60,378 bases of DNA from Candidatus Limnocylindrales bacterium (GCA_046599085.1 JBKJHI010000066.1:1-60378); one strand, 5' to 3'. Shown: positions 1,792 through 60,378, numbered from the stretch's first letter. The notes: generated by a model not told the origin, from the sequence alone. Numbers and translations: made by a program.

Positions 1792-3833
1792 AGCGAACTG
1801 CGTTACTGGTCGACCTTCGTCGCCGCACACGATCGGCGGCATACCTTCGGAAGTGGGTCATCCTTGGCGCGCTGATCGGGTTGATCAGCGGACTCGGGGC
1901 GGTGCTGTTCTTCCTTGCACTCGAGTTCGCGACGCAGGTCCTTCTTGGCGGGATCGCTGGCTACGTGCCCGCATCGCCGATCGGCGAAGGGGGCGCCCCG
2001 ATCACTGACGCCACGCGCCCGTGGGCCATTCCGCTCGTCGTCGCCCTCGGCGCGTTCATCGCCGGTGTCATCGTCGTGCGCTTTGCGCCCGAAGCGGAGG
2101 GCCACGGGACGGACGCGGCCATCGAGGCGTTCCACCACGGTGCGCGGCGGATCCGGGGACGGATCCCGGCGGTCAAGCTCGTCGCCTCGGCGATCACCAT
2201 CGGCTCCGGTGGGTCAGGCGGTCGTGAGGGCCCGACGGCCCAGATCGGCGCCGGGTTCGGCTCGTTTCTGGCTCGACTGCTCGACCTTGACGCTCGTGAT
2301 GCCCGGATCGCTGTCAGCTCGGGTATGGGCGCGGGAATCGGCGCCATCTTCCGGGCACCGCTTGGTGGTGCGGTTCTGGCCGCGGAGATCCCGTACCACG
2401 AGGATGTGGAGTCTGATGCGCTCGTCCCCGCGTTCGTCGCCTCGATCGTCGCCTTCTCCGTCTTTGGCATCTTCATCGGCTTCAGCCCGATCTTCGGGCA
2501 CGTCCCGGTGGAGGGGTTCACCGACCCGCGGCAGCTCGTCTACTACGCTTTCATCGGCCTGGTCACGGGCCTGGTCGGGCGCCTCTATATCTCGACGTTC
2601 TACGGGTTCACGGCCCGTTTCTCCGCTTGGCGCGTGCCGCGGATCCTGCGGATCACGCTCGGTGGGCTAGCGGTCGGATTGATCGCACTGGTCGTTCCGG
2701 GCGTGCTTGGAACGGGCTATGGCTGGGTCGCCGCCGGGCTCGATCGCGAGACGCTGCTCGCGCTGCCGATGTGGACGATCCTGGTCCTGCCGTTCGCGAA
2801 GATCCTGGCGACGTCTTTGTCGATCGGCTCGGGCGGTTCAGGAGGGATCTTCGGACCCGGGATGGTCGTCGGTGGGCTGCTCGGCGCCGGCATGTGGCGA
2901 CTGCTCGAGCCCATCGCGCCGGCGATGCCCATCGACCCCGCGCCGTTCGTCATCGTTTCGATGATGGCACTGTTCGGCAGCGTGGCTCACGCCCCGCTTG
3001 CTGTGATGCTGATGGTCGCCGAGATGACGGGCGACCTCTCGATGCTGGCACCGGCGATGCTGTCGATCGGAGTCGCGACCCTTATCGTCGGTGACCGCTC
3101 GATCTACACCTCGCAGATCCGGAGCCGCGCGGACTCGCCCGCGCACCGATTCCGGTTCGCGCTGCCCCTGATGGCGGCGATCCCGGCCGGCGACGCGGCA
3201 CGGATGCCTCGAGTCGTGCTCACGGCCGAGCAGACGGCGAGCCACGCCGCCGAAGCACTCGGCAACGTGCACCTGCGCGGGGCGCCAGTGGTCGATCGAT
3301 CGGGAGTCCTGCTCGGCTCGATCGAGTTGGCCGACCTGGTCGACGGTGATGGCGCGATGCCTGTCGGAACACTTGATCTCCACGAACGATCGATCCAGGC
3401 TGACGAGACACTCGATGAGGCCCTCGCTGTCCTCGCCGATGGGCATCACCGATGGGCGCCGGTCGTGGCCGACGAGCGTCTCATCGGGATCCTCTCGTCG
3501 CGCGACATCTTGGCCGCCTATCGGCGCGGCCTGGCCGGCAATGTCCGACAGATCAGGAATGTCGGCGAGCATGGAGCGCTGATCGATGCCGAGATCCCGG
3601 CCGCGTCCGGACTGGCGGGGGTCACGGTCGCCCAGGTCCCGTGGCCGCGCGATGCCATCCTTGTCTCGATCACCCGCGGCGACCGAGTCGTCATCCCGCG
3701 CGGTGACGTGACACTCGAGGTCGGCGACCGATTATCGGTGTTCGCCGCATCGGACGGGCGTGCGCCCCTTGACGACCTCCTGGCTGGGTATCGTCCGGCC
3801 GTTTCTGCGGAACCTCGGCTCGACGGAACCTGA
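1788..3833 (+). CDS. ClC chloride channel/transporter with C-terminal CBS pair and TrkA_C (RCK_C) domain
   Basis: GSGGREGP, FRAPLGG, GGIFGP and HAPL motifs, many TM helices, CBS-like APVVD/APVVAD segments, C-terminal SITRGDRVVIPRGDVTLEVGDRL. Confidence 0.9.
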   Translation: MKRTALLVDLRRRTRSAAYLRKWVILGALIGLISGLGAVLFFLALEFATQVLLGGIAGYVPASPIGEGGAPITDATRPWAIPLVVALGAFIAGVIVVRFAPEAEGHGTDAAIEAFHHGARRIRGRIPAVKLVASAITIGSGGSGGREGPTAQIGAGFGSFLARLLDLDARDARIAVSSGMGAGIGAIFRAPLGGAVLAAEIPYHEDVESDALVPAFVASIVAFSVFGIFIGFSPIFGHVPVEGFTDPRQLVYYAFIGLVTGLVGRLYISTFYGFTARFSAWRVPRILRITLGGLAVGLIALVVPGVLGTGYGWVAAGLDRETLLALPMWTILVLPFAKILATSLSIGSGGSGGIFGPGMVVGGLLGAGMWRLLEPIAPAMPIDPAPFVIVSMMALFGSVAHAPLAVMLMVAEMTGDLSMLAPAMLSIGVATLIVGDRSIYTSQIRSRADSPAHRFRFALPLMAAIPAGDAARMPRVVLTAEQTASHAAEALGNVHLRGAPVVDRSGVLLGSIELADLVDGDGAMPVGTLDLHERSIQADETLDEALAVLADGHHRWAPVVADERLIGILSSRDILAAYRRGLAGNVRQIRNVGEHGALIDAEIPAASGLAGVTVAQVPWPRDAILVSITRGDRVVIPRGDVTLEVGDRLSVFAASDGRAPLDDLLAGYRPAVSAEPRLDGT

Positions 3834-3841
3834 CCACAGGT

Positions 3842-3897
3842 GCGCGGCGACGCCGCGCCCGGCCTCGGCCCTCCGCCGGGCGCCCGGAAGCCGGGCT
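3842..3897. terminator. GC-rich hairpin cluster between convergent ClC gene and ssrA
   Basis: Inverted repeats such as GCGCCCGGC...GCCGGGCGC and GCCCGG-AAG-CCGGGC. No U-tract. Confidence 0.4.
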
Positions 3898-3911
3898 GCG
3901 GATGTTGGAAG

Positions 3912-4287
3912 TGGTGGAGATGGGGGAGAGTCGAACTCCCCGTCCAAGACCCTTCGTCGGAGACCACTACGAGCGTGTCCGATGCTTTGTCGTCGACCGT
4001 CCGGACGAACATCGGCACCCTGCCGGACGGTCCAGTCGCGTGTCCCTAGATCGGGCTTGACTCCGGATTACGCGTCGCTCGTCCGGATCGCAGCCTCACT
4101 TGATGACGCTTCCACTACCCGCAAGGCGGAGGTAGCTTCCACGCTCACTCTACCGCCTAAGCGGCGAGAGCGAGAGTCGGCTGGCGGTTGCCAGGTACTT
4201 CGTTTTGCTGCCTGATTAACGAGGCCTGAGCAGCATCCTCGGCTCGCGCTCCCCGACAACCAAGCCCTGTCGAAACCACGCATCCCC
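3912..4287 (-). ncRNA. ssrA: tmRNA; tag peptide (A)GNRQPTLALAA encoded at 4192-4157
   Basis: 5' GGGGATGCGTGGTTTCGAC, 3' GGGAGTTCGACTCTCCCCCATCTCCACCA tRNA-like end, internal ORF ending LALAA-TAG, smpB nearby. Confidence 0.96.
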
Positions 4288-4316
4288 ACAGGACCGAACG
4301 TCGGTTCGGAATGGAC

Positions 4317-4345
4317 ATCCTACCATCGACCCGGTTCGAGGCCAA
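4317..4345 (-). promoter_or_regulatory. sigma70-type promoter of ssrA
   Basis: TTGGCC-17 nt-TAGGAT with extended TG, ~30 nt upstream of the mature 5' end. Confidence 0.6.
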
Positions 4346-4442
4346 GACCTCGACTGGCGGAGCCTGGGGGATCGAACGACCGTCCTCCCGGCGCCCGGAC
4401 CTTCGGCGCGCGTCCCGAGGTGCCGCCGACTGGTATCGTTCT

Positions 4443-4564
4443 CCCTGGCCGAACCTCCTCGCGGAGGACGGGGGACCCACCATCCCTTTCGGGGCAAACC
4501 GCGGACCGTCCGCGGCGGCGATCCCAACGCCGAGCCCGTCAGCTCACCTCGCAGGCCTGCAGGG
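4443..4564 (+). ncRNA. Cyclic di-AMP (ydaO/yuaA) riboswitch
   Basis: Conserved blocks in the correct order: GCCGAA...ACGGGGGACCCA...TTTCGGGGCAAA...CCGAGCCCGTCAGCTCACCTCGCAGGC. Closing stem CCCTGGCC/GGCCTGCAGGG. Upstream TGGTATCGT -10-like box. Confidence 0.88.
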
Positions 4565-4582
4565 CTGCTCGAGGTACCCGTC

Positions 4583-5836
4583 GTGATCCGGCCCCCATTC
4601 CATCCCACGCCCCAGCAGCGCGCCGTCGGGCGCAATCTCGGGTTCGATCTGTTCGCCGCCGTCGGCATCGGCGTGACGACCGCCGTGGTCACGGCGCTCC
4701 TTCCGACGATCGCTCGCCGTGGCGGCCTGGAGCCGATCGGTATCGCTGCCCTCGTGGCCGCGCCGTTCGTCGGTAACCTGCTCGGCGCGTTCGCCGGTCG
4801 GTTCGGGCCGCGGACCACCGGCCAGCTCGCCCTCCTGCGCGGCGTCGGTGCGGTCGCTCTGCTGACCCTCCTGCTCGTGCCGACCCCGCCCGTGATGATC
4901 CTCGCCTCGCTCGTGTTCTGGATCAGCCTGTCGTTCGGCTCGCCGTTCCACCTCCGGCTGTGGACCGTCATGTATCCCGCGCGCCTCGTCGGGCGGATGG
5001 TCGGCATCATCGGGATGGGCCGGGCAGCCGCCAGCGGCCTCGCCGCCTTCGGTGGCGGCGTGCTGGCTGATCGATTGGGCGGTCCGAATGCCGTTGCCGC
5101 CGCCGGCGTGGTCGGCCTGCTTGCCGCCGCCGGCTATGTCGGCCTTCGCGCGCGGACCGCCGAACGGCCGCCCACGTTCTCCGCGCGCGAGTCGATCGCT
5201 GTCCTGCGCGGTCTGCCCGTCCTCGGGCGCATCACCCTGGCCCAGGCGTTCTACGGCGGCGGTCTCATCGCGGCCTCCCCGTTGTTCGCACTGGTCCATG
5301 TCGACCGCCTCGACCTGACCCTGTCCGACGTCGGGATCATCGGCGTCCTGGCCGCGATGTCCACGACGGCGTCCTTCCTGGTCTGGGGCTCGGTGGCAGA
5401 CCGTTTCGGGTCGCTGGTCGTGATCCGGCTTGGGAGCGTGGCCGGGCTGGTGTCCCTGCTCCTCTACGCCGTTGCGCCAAATGTCGCGTTCTTGTGGGGT
5501 GCGGCGCTCTTCACCGGCATCGCCACGGCGGCGATCGACCTCGGTTTCGCCTCGGCGATGAGCGAGTTCGCCCCGCTCGCCGCGCGCGCCCCCGCGAGTG
5601 CTGGCCTCAATGCCGTGACCGGCGCGCGCGGCATCTTCGCCGCCTTCCTGATGAGCGCGCTGCTCCAGGTCGGGCTCGTCAATGTCACGACGGGCCTCCT
5701 GCTCTGCGCGGCCACGACTGCGCTCGGCGTGGTGATGTACACGCGACTGCGGCCTGATCCCGTGGTCCAGATCGAAACGGCTCTGGAACAGGTCGCGGTC
5801 CCGGCCGGCGCGCTGGTGGCGTCGGAGGCCGTCTAG
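4583..5836 (+). CDS. Major facilitator superfamily transporter
   Basis: About 12 hydrophobic segments, motif-A-like WGSVADRFGSLVV and GGVLADRLGG. SD GAGGT 7 nt before the GTG. Confidence 0.85.
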   Translation: MIRPPFHPTPQQRAVGRNLGFDLFAAVGIGVTTAVVTALLPTIARRGGLEPIGIAALVAAPFVGNLLGAFAGRFGPRTTGQLALLRGVGAVALLTLLLVPTPPVMILASLVFWISLSFGSPFHLRLWTVMYPARLVGRMVGIIGMGRAAASGLAAFGGGVLADRLGGPNAVAAAGVVGLLAAAGYVGLRARTAERPPTFSARESIAVLRGLPVLGRITLAQAFYGGGLIAASPLFALVHVDRLDLTLSDVGIIGVLAAMSTTASFLVWGSVADRFGSLVVIRLGSVAGLVSLLLYAVAPNVAFLWGAALFTGIATAAIDLGFASAMSEFAPLAARAPASAGLNAVTGARGIFAAFLMSALLQVGLVNVTTGLLLCAATTALGVVMYTRLRPDPVVQIETALEQVAVPAGALVASEAV

Positions 5837-5860
5837 GCCCGACGCGACCGCGCGTCCCGG

Positions 5861-6325
5861 TCAGCGGCCGCGCTGGATGTCGGCGAGCTGTCGCGCGATG
5901 TCGCGCTTCGAGTCGCGGTCGGCGATATCGCGCCGGCGATCATGCAGCTGCTTGCCGCGGGCGAGGCCGAGTTCCAGCTTGGCCTTGCCGCGCGTGATGT
6001 ACAGGCGCAGCGGGACGATGGTCTGGCCCTTGGCCTTGGCCTTGCCCATCAGCTCGTCGATCTGGCGGCGATGGAGCAGCAGCTTGCGCGTGCGCTTGGG
6101 ATCGTGGTTGTTGCGGTTGCCCTGCTCGAACGGCGCGATGTCGGCGCCGATCAGCCAGGCCTCACCCTTCTCGACGCGCGCATAGGCATTGGCGATGTTC
6201 GCCTTGCCGGCACGAATCGACTTGATCTCCGTGCCGGTCAGCACGAGCCCAGCCTCGAACGTGTCGTCGATGGTGAACTCGTGGCGCGCTTTTCGGTTGA
6301 GGGCGACGGTCGAGTCGTCGCGCAT
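5861..6325 (-). CDS. smpB: SsrA-binding protein SmpB
   Basis: NRKARHEF, EAGLVLTGTEIKSIRAGK, RTRKLLLH, GKQLHDRR. Confidence 0.97.
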   Translation of the reverse strand: MRDDSTVALNRKARHEFTIDDTFEAGLVLTGTEIKSIRAGKANIANAYARVEKGEAWLIGADIAPFEQGNRNNHDPKRTRKLLLHRRQIDELMGKAKAKGQTIVPLRLYITRGKAKLELGLARGKQLHDRRRDIADRDSKRDIARQLADIQRGR

Positions 6326-6389
6326 GGGATGGCTCCGATCGGATGGGGTGTGGGTGAGGAGGATAGCCCGCGCTCGGGGTCCGGGCGCA

Positions 6390-6420
6390 CGAACGCCGGC
6401 CCATGCGGGGCCGGCGTTCG
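6390..6420 (-). terminator. Perfect 13-bp hairpin (putative terminator of small transcript)
   Basis: CGAACGCCGGCCC-5 nt loop-GGGCCGGCGTTCG. Confidence 0.65.
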
Positions 6421-6521
6421 GTTGCGTACCACCCACAGGGTGTCCGACTAAACGGCCATCTCCTGTGAGGTGGTGCAGCTACACGTACTGTCGATCACTG
6501 CACATCACCTCCTTTCGTTCG
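6390..6521 (-). ncRNA. Putative small structured RNA / micro-ORF transcript (GTG 6498-TAG 6448, MIDSTCSCTTSQEMAV)
   Basis: Upstream promoter TTGCGC-17-TACGGT, AAAGGAGGTGAT near the 5' end, internal alternative stems, terminal hairpin. Confidence 0.55.
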
Positions 6522-6526
6522 GGCGA

Positions 6527-6555
6527 ACCGTACCCGATGCGTCGGGGACGCGCAA
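6527..6555 (-). promoter_or_regulatory. sigma70-type promoter of the small transcript
   Basis: TTGCGC (6555-6550), 17-nt spacer, TACGGT (6532-6527). Confidence 0.55.
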
Positions 6556-6575
6556 GACCTGTGTCGATCGGATGA

Positions 6576-7877
6576 TCAGGCGGCGATCCGACCGGTACGT
6601 GCGCCGACCGGCACCGCGGCACCAAGCACCTCGAGCCCGGCATCGAGCACGGGGTCCTCGCCGGGGCCCACGTCGGTGGGGACCGTGACCTGCACATCGG
6701 GCACGATGCCGTCGTCGTGGATCCAGCGCTTGTCGGGCGTGAGCCAGCGGGCGATCGTCAGGCGGAATGCGCCACCCTCTCCCGTCAACTCCTGCCATTG
6801 CTGCACGGTGCCCTTGCCATACGTCGTCTCGCCGACGAGCGTCGCGCGGCCGGTGTCCTGCAACGCCCCGGCGACGATCTCCGATGCCGAGGCGCTCCCG
6901 CCGTCGACCAGGCAGACGACCTGGATCGCGGGGTCCGTGGCGGCACCACCGGCGACCGCGTCGGTCGGCTCCTGCGTGCCGGACGCATCCTGCTCGTAGA
7001 AGATCACGCCGGAGGCGATGAACTGCGACGCCACGTCCCGTGCTGCCGTGACGTAGCCCCCGGGATTGCCGCGCAGGTCGAGGATGAGCTTCGTGCGTCC
7101 CGCTTCTATGTGGGCCTGGAGGGCCGCTTTGACCTCATTCGCGCCGCGATCGGAGAACCCATTCAGCCTGACGTAGCCCACGGTCCCGCCGGCGAGGTCC
7201 CTCGACTCGACCTCCTCCTCCTGGACGACGTCGCGGGTGACCTCGATCGGGAAGGGATCGGTGCCGGATCCGCGCTGGACGGACAGCACGACGACGCTGC
7301 CTTTCGGGCCACGGATACGGTCGCGAGCGCCATCGACCGACAAGCCGTCGAGCGAGACGCCGTCCGTGGCGAGCACGACGTCGTCCGCGAGCAGGCCTGC
7401 CCGTTCGGCGGGTGAACCCACGAGCGGTGCCACGATCACGAGGCGGCACTCCGGTCCGAGCGTGACGCACCCCTGCGTCCCGTCCGGGGCCTCCGTGGCG
7501 ATCCGGGCGCCGATGCCCTCGAACTCGCCGCTGATCCCTTCGAGGCTGCGGCGATACTCCTCCGACGTGAGGTAGGACGAGTACGGGTCGCCGAGGCTGT
7601 CGATCATCCCGCGGATCGCGCCCTGGATCAGGGCTTCGCGGTCGACCGCTCCTCCGGCGTATCGCTCATCGATGGTGTGGAAGGTGTCCCAGAACGGTCG
7701 GAACGCTTCGTCCTGGCCGATCGGCGTCCCGGGCTCGACGGCGCCATGGCGGCCCATCGAGTAGCCGGACATGAACAGCGCGCCGCCGGCCATGAGGGCA
7801 ACGAGCGCGATCGCGAGCTGGAGGATCGGCAGACGGCGAGCCGGCCGGTCACCGACCGGCGGCGCGACGGGTGTCAT
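6576..7877 (-). CDS. ctpA: Carboxyl-terminal processing protease, S41 family (PDZ + protease)
   Basis: LGDPYSSY, FEGIGA, LILDLRGNPGG, SASASEIVAGALQD, TYGKGTVQ, N-terminal TM anchor. Confidence 0.92.
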   Translation of the reverse strand: MTPVAPPVGDRPARRLPILQLAIALVALMAGGALFMSGYSMGRHGAVEPGTPIGQDEAFRPFWDTFHTIDERYAGGAVDREALIQGAIRGMIDSLGDPYSSYLTSEEYRRSLEGISGEFEGIGARIATEAPDGTQGCVTLGPECRLVIVAPLVGSPAERAGLLADDVVLATDGVSLDGLSVDGARDRIRGPKGSVVVLSVQRGSGTDPFPIEVTRDVVQEEEVESRDLAGGTVGYVRLNGFSDRGANEVKAALQAHIEAGRTKLILDLRGNPGGYVTAARDVASQFIASGVIFYEQDASGTQEPTDAVAGGAATDPAIQVVCLVDGGSASASEIVAGALQDTGRATLVGETTYGKGTVQQWQELTGEGGAFRLTIARWLTPDKRWIHDDGIVPDVQVTVPTDVGPGEDPVLDAGLEVLGAAVPVGARTGRIAA

Positions 7878-8025
7878 GGGGACCTCGAGCGAGGTCGGGA
7901 GCGGCGGCTCGGCGGGAGTCATCTCGTGCGGGAACCTCGTGGCCCGCAGGTTTGGCCGCGGGGTGCGCAAGCGTACATCGGGCCTCGCTGCGAGCCCTTC
8001 GCATGAGGGGTGCGTCCGGCGTCGG

Positions 8026-57773: not shown

Positions 57774-58406
57774 ATGACCACCCAAAACGGCCGAGCGTTC
57801 AACGAATGGCTTCGAACGCAGCTGAAGGCCAAGAAGATGTCGCAGCGGCAGCTGGCGCAGCAGTCAGGCGTGGATCACTCCACGATCTCCCGGCTGATCC
57901 GCGGCGATCGCATGCCGTCACTCGGCACCGCCACCAAACTGGCCCGCGGCCTGCGCGAGCTGCGTGACGATGCGGACACACCGCAGTACCTCGGACTTGT
58001 CGCCTCCGGTTCCACCAATCCGACTGCCAGGGTCGAGTACGCGCTGCGGTCCGACGAGCTCCTCTCGGAGCCACAGGTCCGCCAGATCATGGAGTACTAC
58101 CTGGCGGTCAGGATGCGCCGCTACGGGCGCACCTTCCCGTCGGATCCGGTCGGCTCCGGCGAGCGCTCGACAGAACGCGGCATGACCTCCGCCCAGGGCC
58201 GGGTCAGCGGCACGACTGCGCCGTCCGGGCCCGGTGGCACGACGCCGCGCACCAGCGCATCGAATGGGACGGCCATGGTGCCGAGCTCGGTCCGATCGCT
58301 CGGGGTCCGTCGCGTCTCCGAATCGAATGGCCCATCGGGCTACGGCGCGGCCGTCAGCACCGTCCGCACGGTCTCACGAAGCACCGGCCGAGAAGGCCGC
58401 TACTAG
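57774..58406 (+). CDS. XRE-family helix-turn-helix protein with low-complexity C-terminal tail
   Basis: MSQRQLAQQSGVDHSTISRLIRGDRMPSLGTATKL. Confidence 0.88.
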   Translation: MTTQNGRAFNEWLRTQLKAKKMSQRQLAQQSGVDHSTISRLIRGDRMPSLGTATKLARGLRELRDDADTPQYLGLVASGSTNPTARVEYALRSDELLSEPQVRQIMEYYLAVRMRRYGRTFPSDPVGSGERSTERGMTSAQGRVSGTTAPSGPGGTTPRTSASNGTAMVPSSVRSLGVRRVSESNGPSGYGAAVSTVRTVSRSTGREGRY

Positions 58407-58460: not shown

Positions 58461-58493
58461 GCGAACGCCGGCGTCTGGGGCGCCGGCGTTCGC
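58461..58493. terminator. 13-bp GC hairpin after the XRE gene
   Basis: GCGAACGCCGGCG-TCTGGGG-CGCCGGCGTTCGC. Confidence 0.6.
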
Positions 58494-58560: not shown

Positions 58561-58640
58561 GCCCGTCAGCCGCGGCGCCCGTCAGCCGCGGCGCCAGTCA
58601 GCTGCGGCGCGCGGGCCGTCCAGCCGCGGCGCCCGTCAGG
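58561..58640. repeat. 16-bp tandem repeat GCCCGTCAGCCGCGGC (~4.5 degenerate copies)
   Basis: Exact copies at 58561 and 58577, variants at 58593 and 58615, partial copy at 58631. Confidence 0.8.
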
Positions 58641-60378
58641 ACGGGCCGTACACCGACACCCAGCGCCCTGGCGCCGTCTCGAATCGATCCAGCAGCCGAT
58701 CGATAGCGACGCCGGTCCGGGCCATCGCCTCGGCCTCACCGCCGCACGGGGCTTCGATCGCTGCCTCGAACAGTGAATCGCACAGCAGGACGACTGCTCC
58801 CGATGGCGGCGTGGCGGTGCCGGCGCCATCCGATCCCGGCGGCGTGCTTCCCGGCGACAGCCCCCGCGGTGTCATCGCCGCCACGGCACGGCCGAGTCGA
58901 ACGAGCGGATAGGCCATCGACTCCGGCGACTTGAAGTCCGGCAGCGACTGGATCGCCACGACCGATTCGCGCTCGACACCGGCGGCGGACAGGACCGCGT
59001 CAACGCGCGCCGCCGCCCGTTCGGCGACCGGGAAGCCGCCATCCGGGTGGACCGCGGGCGGAAGGTGGCTCAGGTTCCAGCCAAGGAGGGCCGTGAGCGC
59101 CACGACCGCCAGGATGCGTCCGGGCACGGAACGGGCGAGCGCCGCCGCCCCGAGCCCGACGAGGCTGAACACCATCGGATCGGCAAAGGCGTGGTAGTGA
59201 TCATTCGGCAGGCCCGGCTGGACGACGGCGAGGCTCGGCGCCGCGACGGCGAGGAACAGCGTCGACCAGACGAGGCCCAGACCAAGCCAGCGCACCGCGG
59301 TCTGTCGCGGTCCACCGGCGCGCCACAGCACCGCGACGATGGCCACGACCGCGGACGTCGCTGCGAATGCGGCCGTGACTCCGGCCGTGATGAGCCCGGT
59401 CAGCGGCCACGACACCACCCGCAACCCGGTGATGGCGATCCGCCCCGGGAGGGCGACATCGGGCGCATCGCGCGGACCTGACAGGTAGGCGAGGGCCGCC
59501 CGAACCTCGGAGAAGCCCGACGTCAGCTCGTTCGCGACGAGCGGCACGACACTCGCCGCGAAGACCGCGACGATGCCAAGGCCGACGCGCCGATCGATGC
59601 GACGGTCCGCGCCGCGGCGGCGGACATCGGCGACGAGCAGGGCGGCGACGACGGGGAGCAGCGCGACCCCCAGGACGTGGCACTGCACCGTGATCGCGGT
59701 GCCGACGGCGGCCAGCAACCACCACCTCGGCCGTTCAGATGACCACGCTCGCCAGGCTCCGGCCAGCGCGACCGAGCTCGACAGGGCGATGAGGTTCGGG
59801 TTCCAGATGAACGTCGATTCGTCCACGGCGGCGGCGGATACCGCCATGACCAGTCCCGCGACGAGACCAGCGACGGGCCCCCCGATGGACCGCGCCAGCC
59901 ACCACGTGACACCGACCGCGGCGACACCACTCAACGCGATGAGGCCGACCACGGCCAGCGGGGAGTCCCCGCCGGTCAACTCCGCCGCCGGCGCGAGCAG
60001 GAGGTAGTACCACGCACCATGGTGGACGTCGCCGATCGAGGTCGGTGGCCCGAGAAGGGGGATCACCCCGTCGCGGATGAACGAGCGCAGCACGAGCATG
60101 TCGTGGCCCTGGTCACTGTCCCAGGTCCCCCGTGTGGCGAGGTCAGGGAGTCGCAGGAGGGCCGCCAGCAGCAACAGGCTCAGCAGCGCGAGCGCATCGT
60201 GCCCGGGGAGCCCTCGGTCCGGCGACCCCCGCCCTCGCCCGGCGAGCCAGCCCCGCCCGGCAAATGAACCCCGCCCGGTGAGCCCTCGGTCCGGCGACCC
60301 CCGCCCTCGCCCGGCGAGCCAGCCCCGCCCCGCGAGCCAACCCCGCCCGGTGAGCCCTCGGTCCGGCGACCCCCGTCC
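58636..60378 (-). CDS. Glycosyltransferase family 39 (ArnT/PMT-like GT-C) membrane protein; frame open to window end
   Basis: LLRL...WDSDQGHD, PLLGPPTSIG..HHGAWYY, STFIWNPN, VQCH, many TM helices. Confidence 0.82.
   Translation of the reverse strand, partial: GRGSPDRGLTGRGWLAGRGWLAGRGRGSPDRGLTGRGSFAGRGWLAGRGRGSPDRGLPGHDALALLSLLLLAALLRLPDLATRGTWDSDQGHDMLVLRSFIRDGVIPLLGPPTSIGDVHHGAWYYLLLAPAAELTGGDSPLAVVGLIALSGVAAVGVTWWLARSIGGPVAGLVAGLVMAVSAAAVDESTFIWNPNLIALSSSVALAGAWRAWSSERPRWWLLAAVGTAITVQCHVLGVALLPVVAALLVADVRRRGADRRIDRRVGLGIVAVFAASVVPLVANELTSGFSEVRAALAYLSGPRDAPDVALPGRIAITGLRVVSWPLTGLITAGVTAAFAATSAVVAIVAVLWRAGGPRQTAVRWLGLGLVWSTLFLAVAAPSLAVVQPGLPNDHYHAFADPMVFSLVGLGAAALARSVPGRILAVVALTALLGWNLSHLPPAVHPDGGFPVAERAAARVDAVLSAAGVERESVVAIQSLPDFKSPESMAYPLVRLGRAVAAMTPRGLSPGSTPPGSDGAGTATPPSGAVVLLCDSLFEAAIEAPCGGEAEAMARTGVAIDRLLDRFETAPGRWVSVYGPS
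60203..60378 (-). repeat. 72-bp tandem repeat (about 2.4 copies visible) with 18-bp sub-repeats
   Basis: GAGCCCTCGGTCCGGCGACCCCCG starts at 60208, 60280 and 60352. Reads in frame as GRGSPDRGLTGRGWLAGRGWLAGR. Confidence 0.85.

Follow-up and report, generated by a model that had tools for sequence, protein, structure and literature searches.

We describe a small conserved module that lies on the minus strand between ctpA and smpB in Candidatus Limnocylindrales bacterium (GCA_046599085.1, JBKJHI010000066.1:1-60378). The whole stretch of 60,378 bases, hereafter the window, comes from a Limnocylindria-type Chloroflexota genome. The module combines a promoter-like signal, a long Shine-Dalgarno (SD) block, a micro open reading frame (micro-ORF), two stems that exclude one another and a GC-rich hairpin. 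It represents a new RNA family, class-wide in distribution though general in kind, and genome comparison gives good support for an expressed, ribosome-interacting and bistable unit linked to smpB. Tentatively, we favour the reading that it is a lineage-specific, self-gated micro-mRNA or small RNA (sRNA) coupled to smpB in Limnocylindria-type Chloroflexota. Comparison of genomes shows the linkage of the module to smpB; a functional link to ribosome rescue is conjectural. The region had been singled out by an earlier note made from the sequence alone, and each feature listed there was recovered at its position on the minus strand.

Conservation of the module upstream of smpB

Species-representative genomes were scanned with the SmpB of the window and the best 80 of 229 confirmed loci were kept. 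Of these, 61 (L001-L059, L070 and L075) are from Chloroflexota metagenome-assembled genomes (MAGs) that carry the label Limnocylindria, Limnocylindrales or 'Chloroflexia', and their SmpB is 66-96% identical; the remaining 19 are outgroups (Bacillota, Caldilineae and others). The full module is found, in one copy, before smpB in every Limnocylindria-type locus with enough upstream DNA (59/59), and these loci together with the window make up an alignment of 60 sequences. Two loci stand outside this count: L011 has no upstream DNA and L021 only 166 nucleotides (nt), in which the 3′ 108 nt of the module are present (113.9 bits with model R1) before the contig end cuts off the rest. Moreover, none of the 19 outgroup loci gave a match to model R1 at E up to 10, and in the Caldilineae locus L067 ctpA directly abuts smpB with no module between them. 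The window itself holds a single full copy (154.7 bits), the other matches to the model being to the hairpin only. A mobile-element origin was also considered, and BLASTN against plasmid and phage collections gave no match.

The 5′ half of the module recurs nearly letter for letter in all 59 loci. Across the alignment the SD block, AAAGGAGGTGAT, differs only in L015, by a single A-to-G change. Within the window the exact 12-mer is found a single time, and allowing up to two mismatches gave 3 matches where 1.35 are expected, both extra matches being poorer. Among the 14 loci most distant from the window in smpB coding DNA (73-77% identical), the 5′ block (alignment columns 2-26, spanning the leader, the SD and both GTG codons) is 96-100% identical, the internal anti-SD block 83-94%, and the loop of stem A (P1) just 25-94%. 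The 5′ block is thus kept better than the coding DNA of the neighbouring essential gene, which argues for contact with universal machinery, most simply the ribosome.

Upstream of the SD block the pattern TTGCnn-17-TAnnnT is present in 60/60 sequences. The -35 variants are TTGCGC (43), TTGCAC (13) and others (4), and the spacer is always 17 nt long, with 56 distinct sequences. Hexamers and spacing that are fixed around a free sequence constitute a promoter signature, and the view of the module as a self-contained unit that begins with TTGCGC-17-TACGGT is thereby strengthened. A scan for the sigma-70 consensus called no promoter at the module, because TACGGT matches only 3/6 positions of TATAAT; the promoter call therefore rests on comparative evidence. 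The distance from the end of the -10 to GGAGG is 14 nt in 53/60 sequences, the invariant alignment columns begin at the AACGAAAGG block, and conservation of the RNA sets in ~7 nt past the -10, at (G)AACGAAAGGAGG. Given this starting point of conservation, the SD block would lie ~5 nt from the 5′ end, and we infer that a sigma-A-type promoter drives the module's own RNA from there.

The gene upstream of the module is ctpA in 58/59 loci. In the remaining locus, L029, ctpA is absent, and ddl and an ftsQ-type POTRA gene lie upstream instead; the module still adjoins smpB. Between this ftsQ-type gene and the module, L029 carries ~4 tandem copies of a ~19-nt unit (~2600-2680) in a non-coding stretch of ~480 nt. 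The orientation of the module is likewise that of smpB in 58/59 loci. In L032 the module lies between ctpA and smpB in inverted orientation (L032 2390-2570), complete and intact from its promoter to its hairpin, which suggests that the module is autonomous and has no need to be in cis to smpB. Both L032 and L044 have TAGGAT 6 nt before the smpB ATG, suggesting a nearly leaderless smpB message in this clade.

Competing folds and a short reading frame

A 141-nt stretch of the module folds at -73 kcal/mol, compared with -52 +/- 3.6 kcal/mol for shuffles (z -5.8), and 0/200 shuffles were as good. Across the alignment 99.3% of cells are paired, against 34-43% in slid controls, and 5 pairs are changed on both sides, a number reached by 1/500 shuffles. 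Stem A comprises 13 pairs (6511-6497 with 6479-6467), all of them invariant in 51 distinct rows, and its anti-SD strand has zero synonymous changes in 60 sequences; support for this stem comes from the conservation of both strands around a variable loop, not from covariation. P2 covaries across four sequence types (CACAGG/CCUGUG, CGCAGG/CCUGCG, CGCGGG/CCCGC and CGCUCGG/CCGGCG). The 13 pairs of the closing hairpin are 100% paired with compensatory changes at 4 of them, and the GGTGG core that competes for the anti-SD strand is retained in 59/60 sequences, being GGTGA in L024. Covariation in relatives, which the earlier note had proposed to test, is thus seen for P2 and the closing hairpin but not for stem A or ACCACC:GGUGG, which are invariant.

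These pairings define a locked fold, in which stem A buries the SD, and an open fold, in which stem B frees it. Energies were calculated for the RNA from its inferred 5′ end with either the SD:CACCUC or the CCACC:GGUGG pairs forced. Locked minus open came to +0.34 +/- 1.34 kcal/mol, with values between -3.3 and +4.8 among the 60 sequences. Of these, 45 favour the open fold and 15 the locked one, and in none of the divergent types L041, L042, L050 and L059 does the difference exceed 3 kcal/mol. In the predicted ensemble, GGAGG is unpaired with a probability of ~0.5. The mutually exclusive stems first seen in the window are therefore conserved and, in predicted folds, nearly isoenergetic. As for an RNA thermometer, the predicted effect of temperature is weak (probability of GGAGG being unpaired 0.42 at 10 °C and 0.59 at 45 °C).

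The frame that opens at GTG 6498 runs for 16 codons in 50 sequences and for 15 codons in another 9, and an aligned UAG or UAA (UAR) ends it in 59/60. GTG and UAR are 48 nt apart in 50 sequences; the interval is 45 nt in 9 others and 49 nt in the last one. Between CACCUC and UAR there are always 16 nt (60/60), despite a rewritten stretch in the L041 and L059 types. The stop stays in frame in three divergent types in which its neighbours vary, and its structural context is mostly a hairpin loop but, in the L041 type, the flank of another small hairpin. The sole clade-shared indel within the frame is of 3 nt. After the stop, two segments of ~15 nt vary in length by single bases, with 5 and 4 classes. 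Moreover, the two start codons are suitably spaced for initiation, at 4 and 9 nt past GGAGG. These data, though confounded by conservation at the level of the RNA, make translation of the micro-ORF moderately likely. The other candidate frame put forward previously, the GTG-CAG-TGA minigene, is no better supported, as L059 lacks its TGA and reads on.

The encoded peptide itself is variable. At one of its ends we find IDSTRS, IDPTPS, IERSS, TDHSS and SDQPMR, and at its other end QEMAV, REAAA and LGADL; residue 3 is always D or E, through the codons GAC, GAA and GAT. SCTTS, the constant part, comes from the invariant anti-SD strand, which shows no synonymous change, and is thus explained by the RNA. 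Since the peptide varies wherever the RNA is unpaired, it would be ribosome binding and translation that matter, not the peptide, and a function for the peptide itself is unlikely. Peptide conservation, a further check proposed in the earlier note, is therefore found in the frame and its stop (59/60) but not in the residues outside the stems.

The hairpin that closes the unit was correctly recognised as perfect over 13 bp (6420-6390), and it covaries in relatives. It is a probable U-less terminator or 3′-end structure. A look-alike U-less GC hairpin (CGAACGCCGGCG...CGCCGGCGTTCG) lies at 58462-58492, between convergent ORFs at 57774-58406 (+) and 58636-60174 (-). Such hairpins therefore occur at expected terminator sites in this genome, and the U-less hairpin may be its usual terminator type. 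On comparative evidence, then, the module has the promoter of its own and the 3′-end structure that mark an independent small-RNA gene.

Between the hairpin and smpB there is a spacer of 29-180 nt in relatives (median 54; 36 nt or less in 5). C makes up 45% of it and G 25%, C exceeds G in 57/59 spacers, and CCACCC-like or CTATCCTTCC tracts are often present. We take this C-rich, G-poor composition to resemble a Rho utilisation (rut) site, and the spacer could serve for Rho loading. The hexamer TATCCT, previously read as a -10 belonging to smpB, is in just 13/59 spacers and is not conserved, and 43/59 spacers have no -10-like TAnnnT at all. In most genomes the promoter of the module is the only conserved promoter-like signal before smpB. 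The absence of a -10-like hexamer from 43/59 spacers suggests that smpB is probably, at least in part, transcribed through the U-less hairpin.

A proposed self-gated RNA and its alternatives

Under the reading that we tentatively favour, the promoter of the module would give rise to an RNA of ~135 nt with a perfect 12-nt SD ~5 nt from its start and the GC-rich, U-less hairpin at its end. In the locked fold, codons 7-11 of its own frame (GCUGCAC-CACCUC) would pair with the SD and the start codon; in the open fold, the downstream GGGUGG would capture the same strand and so free the SD. As neither fold is much more stable than the other, the RNA would be tipped open by a bound 30S subunit or by a ribosome translating through the anti-SD codons, and with scarce ribosomes it would relax. 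Candidate outputs are the stability of the RNA, through a ribosome-protected 5′ end, the exposure of its 3′ strand in trans and the ratio of short RNA to read-through smpB. Since smpB is probably made by read-through of the hairpin, the module would thereby be tied to ribosome rescue. A bolder version, in which the RNA senses free ribosomes and is wired to ribosome rescue, we regard as improbable. In such a sensor the near-perfect SD would capture idle 30S subunits, with capture and translation holding the open fold and a shortage of free ribosomes giving the locked one; the balance of folds would set the yield of short RNA against read-through smpB, or expose GGGUGG in trans. SmpB supply would then follow the stock of stalled versus free ribosomes.

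A number of observations weigh against the self-gated RNA. Its start, its end, its translation and its switching are all deduced from sequence, and the anti-16S match assumes the canonical 16S 3′ end, the lineage's own end lying outside the window. The pairs of stem A and the ACCACC:GGUGG pairs of stem B never vary and so carry no covariation support, and the 60 sequences are related, meaning that the bistability figure does not amount to 60 independent tests. As to the frame, one extra C in the P1 loop of L007 (2808-2946) breaks it. The other two frames are also 'conserved' (MCSDRQYA-type in 58/60, VQ in 59/60), because the sequence itself is conserved. Independent frame events are few, namely one 3-nt deletion in one clade and the break in L007, and the indels after the stop are mostly in C or G runs, which are indel-prone. 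A terminator scan found 0 U-tailed sites at the module, the hairpin having no U-run. The inversion in L032, on which autonomy leans, is a single case in a short-read MAG contig. Lastly, a target for GGGUGG in the smpB leader was not supported (duplex mean z -0.33, with 7/59 below -2, relative to shuffles that keep base content only). The extra C of L007 may be genuine or may stem from an indel error in assembly or sequencing.

The strongest competitor, though an unlikely one, is a purely non-coding, trans-acting sRNA. Here the SD would recruit the 30S subunit or the ribosome for 5′ protection, in the manner of STAB-SD, or for 30S sequestration, the short frames would be by-products of conservation, and GGGUGG/CCUGUG or another stretch would pair with unspecified mRNAs. 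RNA-level constraint does dominate the module: its stems are without synonymous change in 60 sequences while the loop peptide is free, short ORFs are conserved in all three frames, and the unit is autonomous enough to be found inverted in L032. The STAB-SD stabiliser was reportedly described in Bacillus by Agaisse and Lereclus in 1996. According to the accessible part of PMC5737220, initiating ribosomes at a strong SD block RNase J1. The module is like STAB-SD and hbs mRNA 5′ ends in placing an SD fully complementary to the (canonical) 16S 3′ end a few nt from its (inferred) 5′ end. However, it differs from them in having start codons at a working distance, 4 and 9 nt from GGAGG, and an internal strand that can hide the SD. 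A non-coding RNA also leaves unexplained the in-frame UAR at the same codon position in divergent types of differing local structure, and the strict length up to the stop with frequent single-base indels directly after it. Nor was a target found for it, the smpB leader and the transfer-messenger RNA (tmRNA) having been tried with negative or uninformative results. In the case of tmRNA the whole-length duplex was weaker than 199/200 shuffles, and this calculation was dropped as uninformative.

Less probable again, and quite doubtful, is a cis-acting leader or attenuator of smpB, in which translation of the leader ORF, and thus ribosome availability, sets the passage of polymerase through the hairpin or its escape from Rho. 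Leader-peptide attenuators of the trpL type have a short ORF of ~15 codons between promoter and hairpin. The module is like them in having a 15-16 codon ORF, the size of classical leader peptides, upstream of smpB, itself probably dependent on read-through. It stands upstream of smpB in the same orientation in 58/59 loci, stays with smpB in L029, is followed in 43/59 loci by a spacer without a -10-like hexamer and in 5 by a spacer of only 29-36 nt, and the C-rich, G-poor spacer would suit Rho. However, the module has no antiterminator, no U-run and no evident regulatory codon run. In L032 it is intact although inverted and facing ctpA, with TAGGAT just before the smpB ATG there and in L044. 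The stop is 27 nt before the hairpin base, which is too far for a terminating ribosome to mask the hairpin. Moreover, the hairpin is predicted to form unchanged in the locked, open and SD-free folds, indicating that the putative switch acts on the SD and not on termination. With no U-run and no structure competing with the hairpin in either state, attenuation in its classical form, one of the readings first offered for this unit, is not upheld. We also considered an antiterminator formed by pairing of the 5′-end GAACG with CGUUC of the hairpin; no covariation was seen by eye, and in the L041 type the hairpin base is CAUUCG with the 5′ end the same. The accessible parts of the literature found for leader peptides or attenuation elements upstream of smpB hold nothing on such an element.

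Last comes a micro-protein gene, in which a 15-16 residue peptide (M-[IST]-[DE]-x2-3-[SR]-C-T-T-S-...) is functional and the folds merely tune its synthesis; this is improbable, for although frame and stop are kept in 59/60 and residue 3 is always acidic through three different codons, the peptide is poorly conserved outside the stems at both ends, SCTTS is accounted for by the anti-SD strand, and no partner genes are nearby, the neighbours being ftsE, ftsX, ctpA, smpB and an MFS gene. Its precedent is Spot 42, which according to the accessible part of PMC8916003 encodes a functional 15-residue protein, SpfP. As far as that source goes, the module would share with Spot 42 an independently transcribed RNA of ~100-140 nt with a frame of 15-16 codons, but differs in that the frame lies inside a predicted SD/anti-SD switch and the peptide is variable.

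The self-gated RNA can also be set beside known SD-sequestering switches. RNA thermometers such as ROSE and fourU likewise hide the SD, together with the start codon, in a hairpin able to open. In the module, by contrast, opening would be by a competing third strand, GGGUGG, and the gated gene has just 15-16 codons. Its mode of action would come closest to that of a dual-function or leader-type small RNA in which a switch sequesters the SD; its likeness to STAB-SD stabilisers and to Spot 42/SpfP is no more than an analogy.

Known families and the surrounding locus

The whole window was searched against Rfam 15 at gathering thresholds, and positions 6250-6650 at E up to 10. At gathering thresholds only tmRNA and a cyclic di-AMP (c-di-AMP) riboswitch were found in the window and nothing at the module, in agreement with the earlier note, whose author did not recognise the family. 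The best match in 6250-6650 is RF01867 CC2171, which scores 17.4 bits (E 0.13) where the gathering score is 75. CC2171 is an sRNA of Alphaproteobacteria, a different phylum from that of the module's hosts, and we know of no link between it and smpB. Like the module, its consensus starts with a CGAAAGGAGGUGA block near the 5′ end and has a GC-rich closing hairpin. However, the SD block and hairpin alone align, out of a model of 159 positions, and in the centre 65 nt here face 1 in the model and 7 nt here face 95. CC2171 has been detected by Northern blot in Caulobacter and Methylorubrum, according to the accessible part of bioRxiv 10.1101/2022.01.24.477521. A literature search for small RNAs in Limnocylindria returned no paper.

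The module would thus add a hitherto undescribed family of RNAs, kept throughout a class-level lineage of Chloroflexota from soil and freshwater, and it is probably the main promoter region of smpB in these genomes. To our knowledge, little has been established outside model bacteria about how trans-translation capacity is set. Moreover, the module would offer a compact natural two-state device of SD, anti-SD and anti-anti-SD, ~90 nt long and readily tested in vitro. Its elements are listed in Table 1 together with the neighbouring genes; the gap between ctpA and smpB that holds it is 250 nt.

Table 1. Positions in the window of the module's elements, as observed or predicted, and of the adjacent genes
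Feature	Position	Strand	Remarks
-35-like hexamer TTGCGC	6550..6555	-	TTGCnn in 60/60 aligned units
-10-like hexamer TACGGT	6527..6532	-	17 nt after the -35; TAnnnT pattern
Inferred transcription start	6519..6521	-	~7 nt after the -10; sequence conservation begins here (GAACGAAAGG)
SD block AAAGGAGGTGAT	6504..6515	-	complementary over 12 nt to the canonical 16S 3′ end
Stem A (P1), 5′ strand: GAGGTG, AT bulge, GTGCAGT	6497..6511	-	holds SD core and both GTG codons; as first noted, 6511-6498 pairs with CTGCAC/CACCTC 6478-6467
Two-codon frame GTG-CAG-TGA	6495..6503	-	TGA overlaps the next GTG; in 59/60
Micro-ORF, GTG + 15 codons + TAG (MIDSTCSCTTSQEMAV, 16 amino acids)	6448..6498	-	GTG 6498, TAG 6450-6448
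Stem A, 3′ strand GCTGCAC-CACCTC	6467..6479	-	internal anti-SD; encodes codons 7-11 (S-C-T-T-S)
Stem B, ACCACC(T)CACAGG with CCTGTGGGTGGT	6474-6462 with 6439-6428	-	
P2, 5′ strand ACAGG	6462..6466	-	pairs with 6439-6435; common to both folds
CCTGTG (P2, 3′ strand) then GGGTGGT (anti-anti-SD)	6428..6439	-	GGGTGGT pairs with ACCACC, freeing the SD
GC-rich hairpin	6386..6425	-	13 perfect pairs at 6420-6390, extended by GCA/UGC; no U-run after
C-rich spacer, hairpin to smpB	6326..6385	-	contains TATCCT (6365-6360) and smpB SD GGAG
smpB	5861..6325	-	Pfam SmpB, E 8e-59
ctpA-like S41 peptidase with PDZ domain	6576..7970	-	upstream neighbour; Pfam Peptidase_S41, E 5e-50, plus PDZ
ftsX	8910-8026	-	
ftsE	9741-8917	-	

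On the other side of smpB, the tmRNA matched by Rfam is full-length (3912-4287, minus strand, 122 bits) and lies beyond an oppositely oriented MFS gene. ARAGORN called no tRNA or tmRNA gene in 3500-7000, which is at odds with this match. The c-di-AMP riboswitch (4437-4572, plus strand, 58.9 bits) is directly upstream of an ORF for a 417-residue MFS-type transporter (4583-5836, plus strand), and the two together occupy the region between smpB and tmRNA, on the opposite strand to both.

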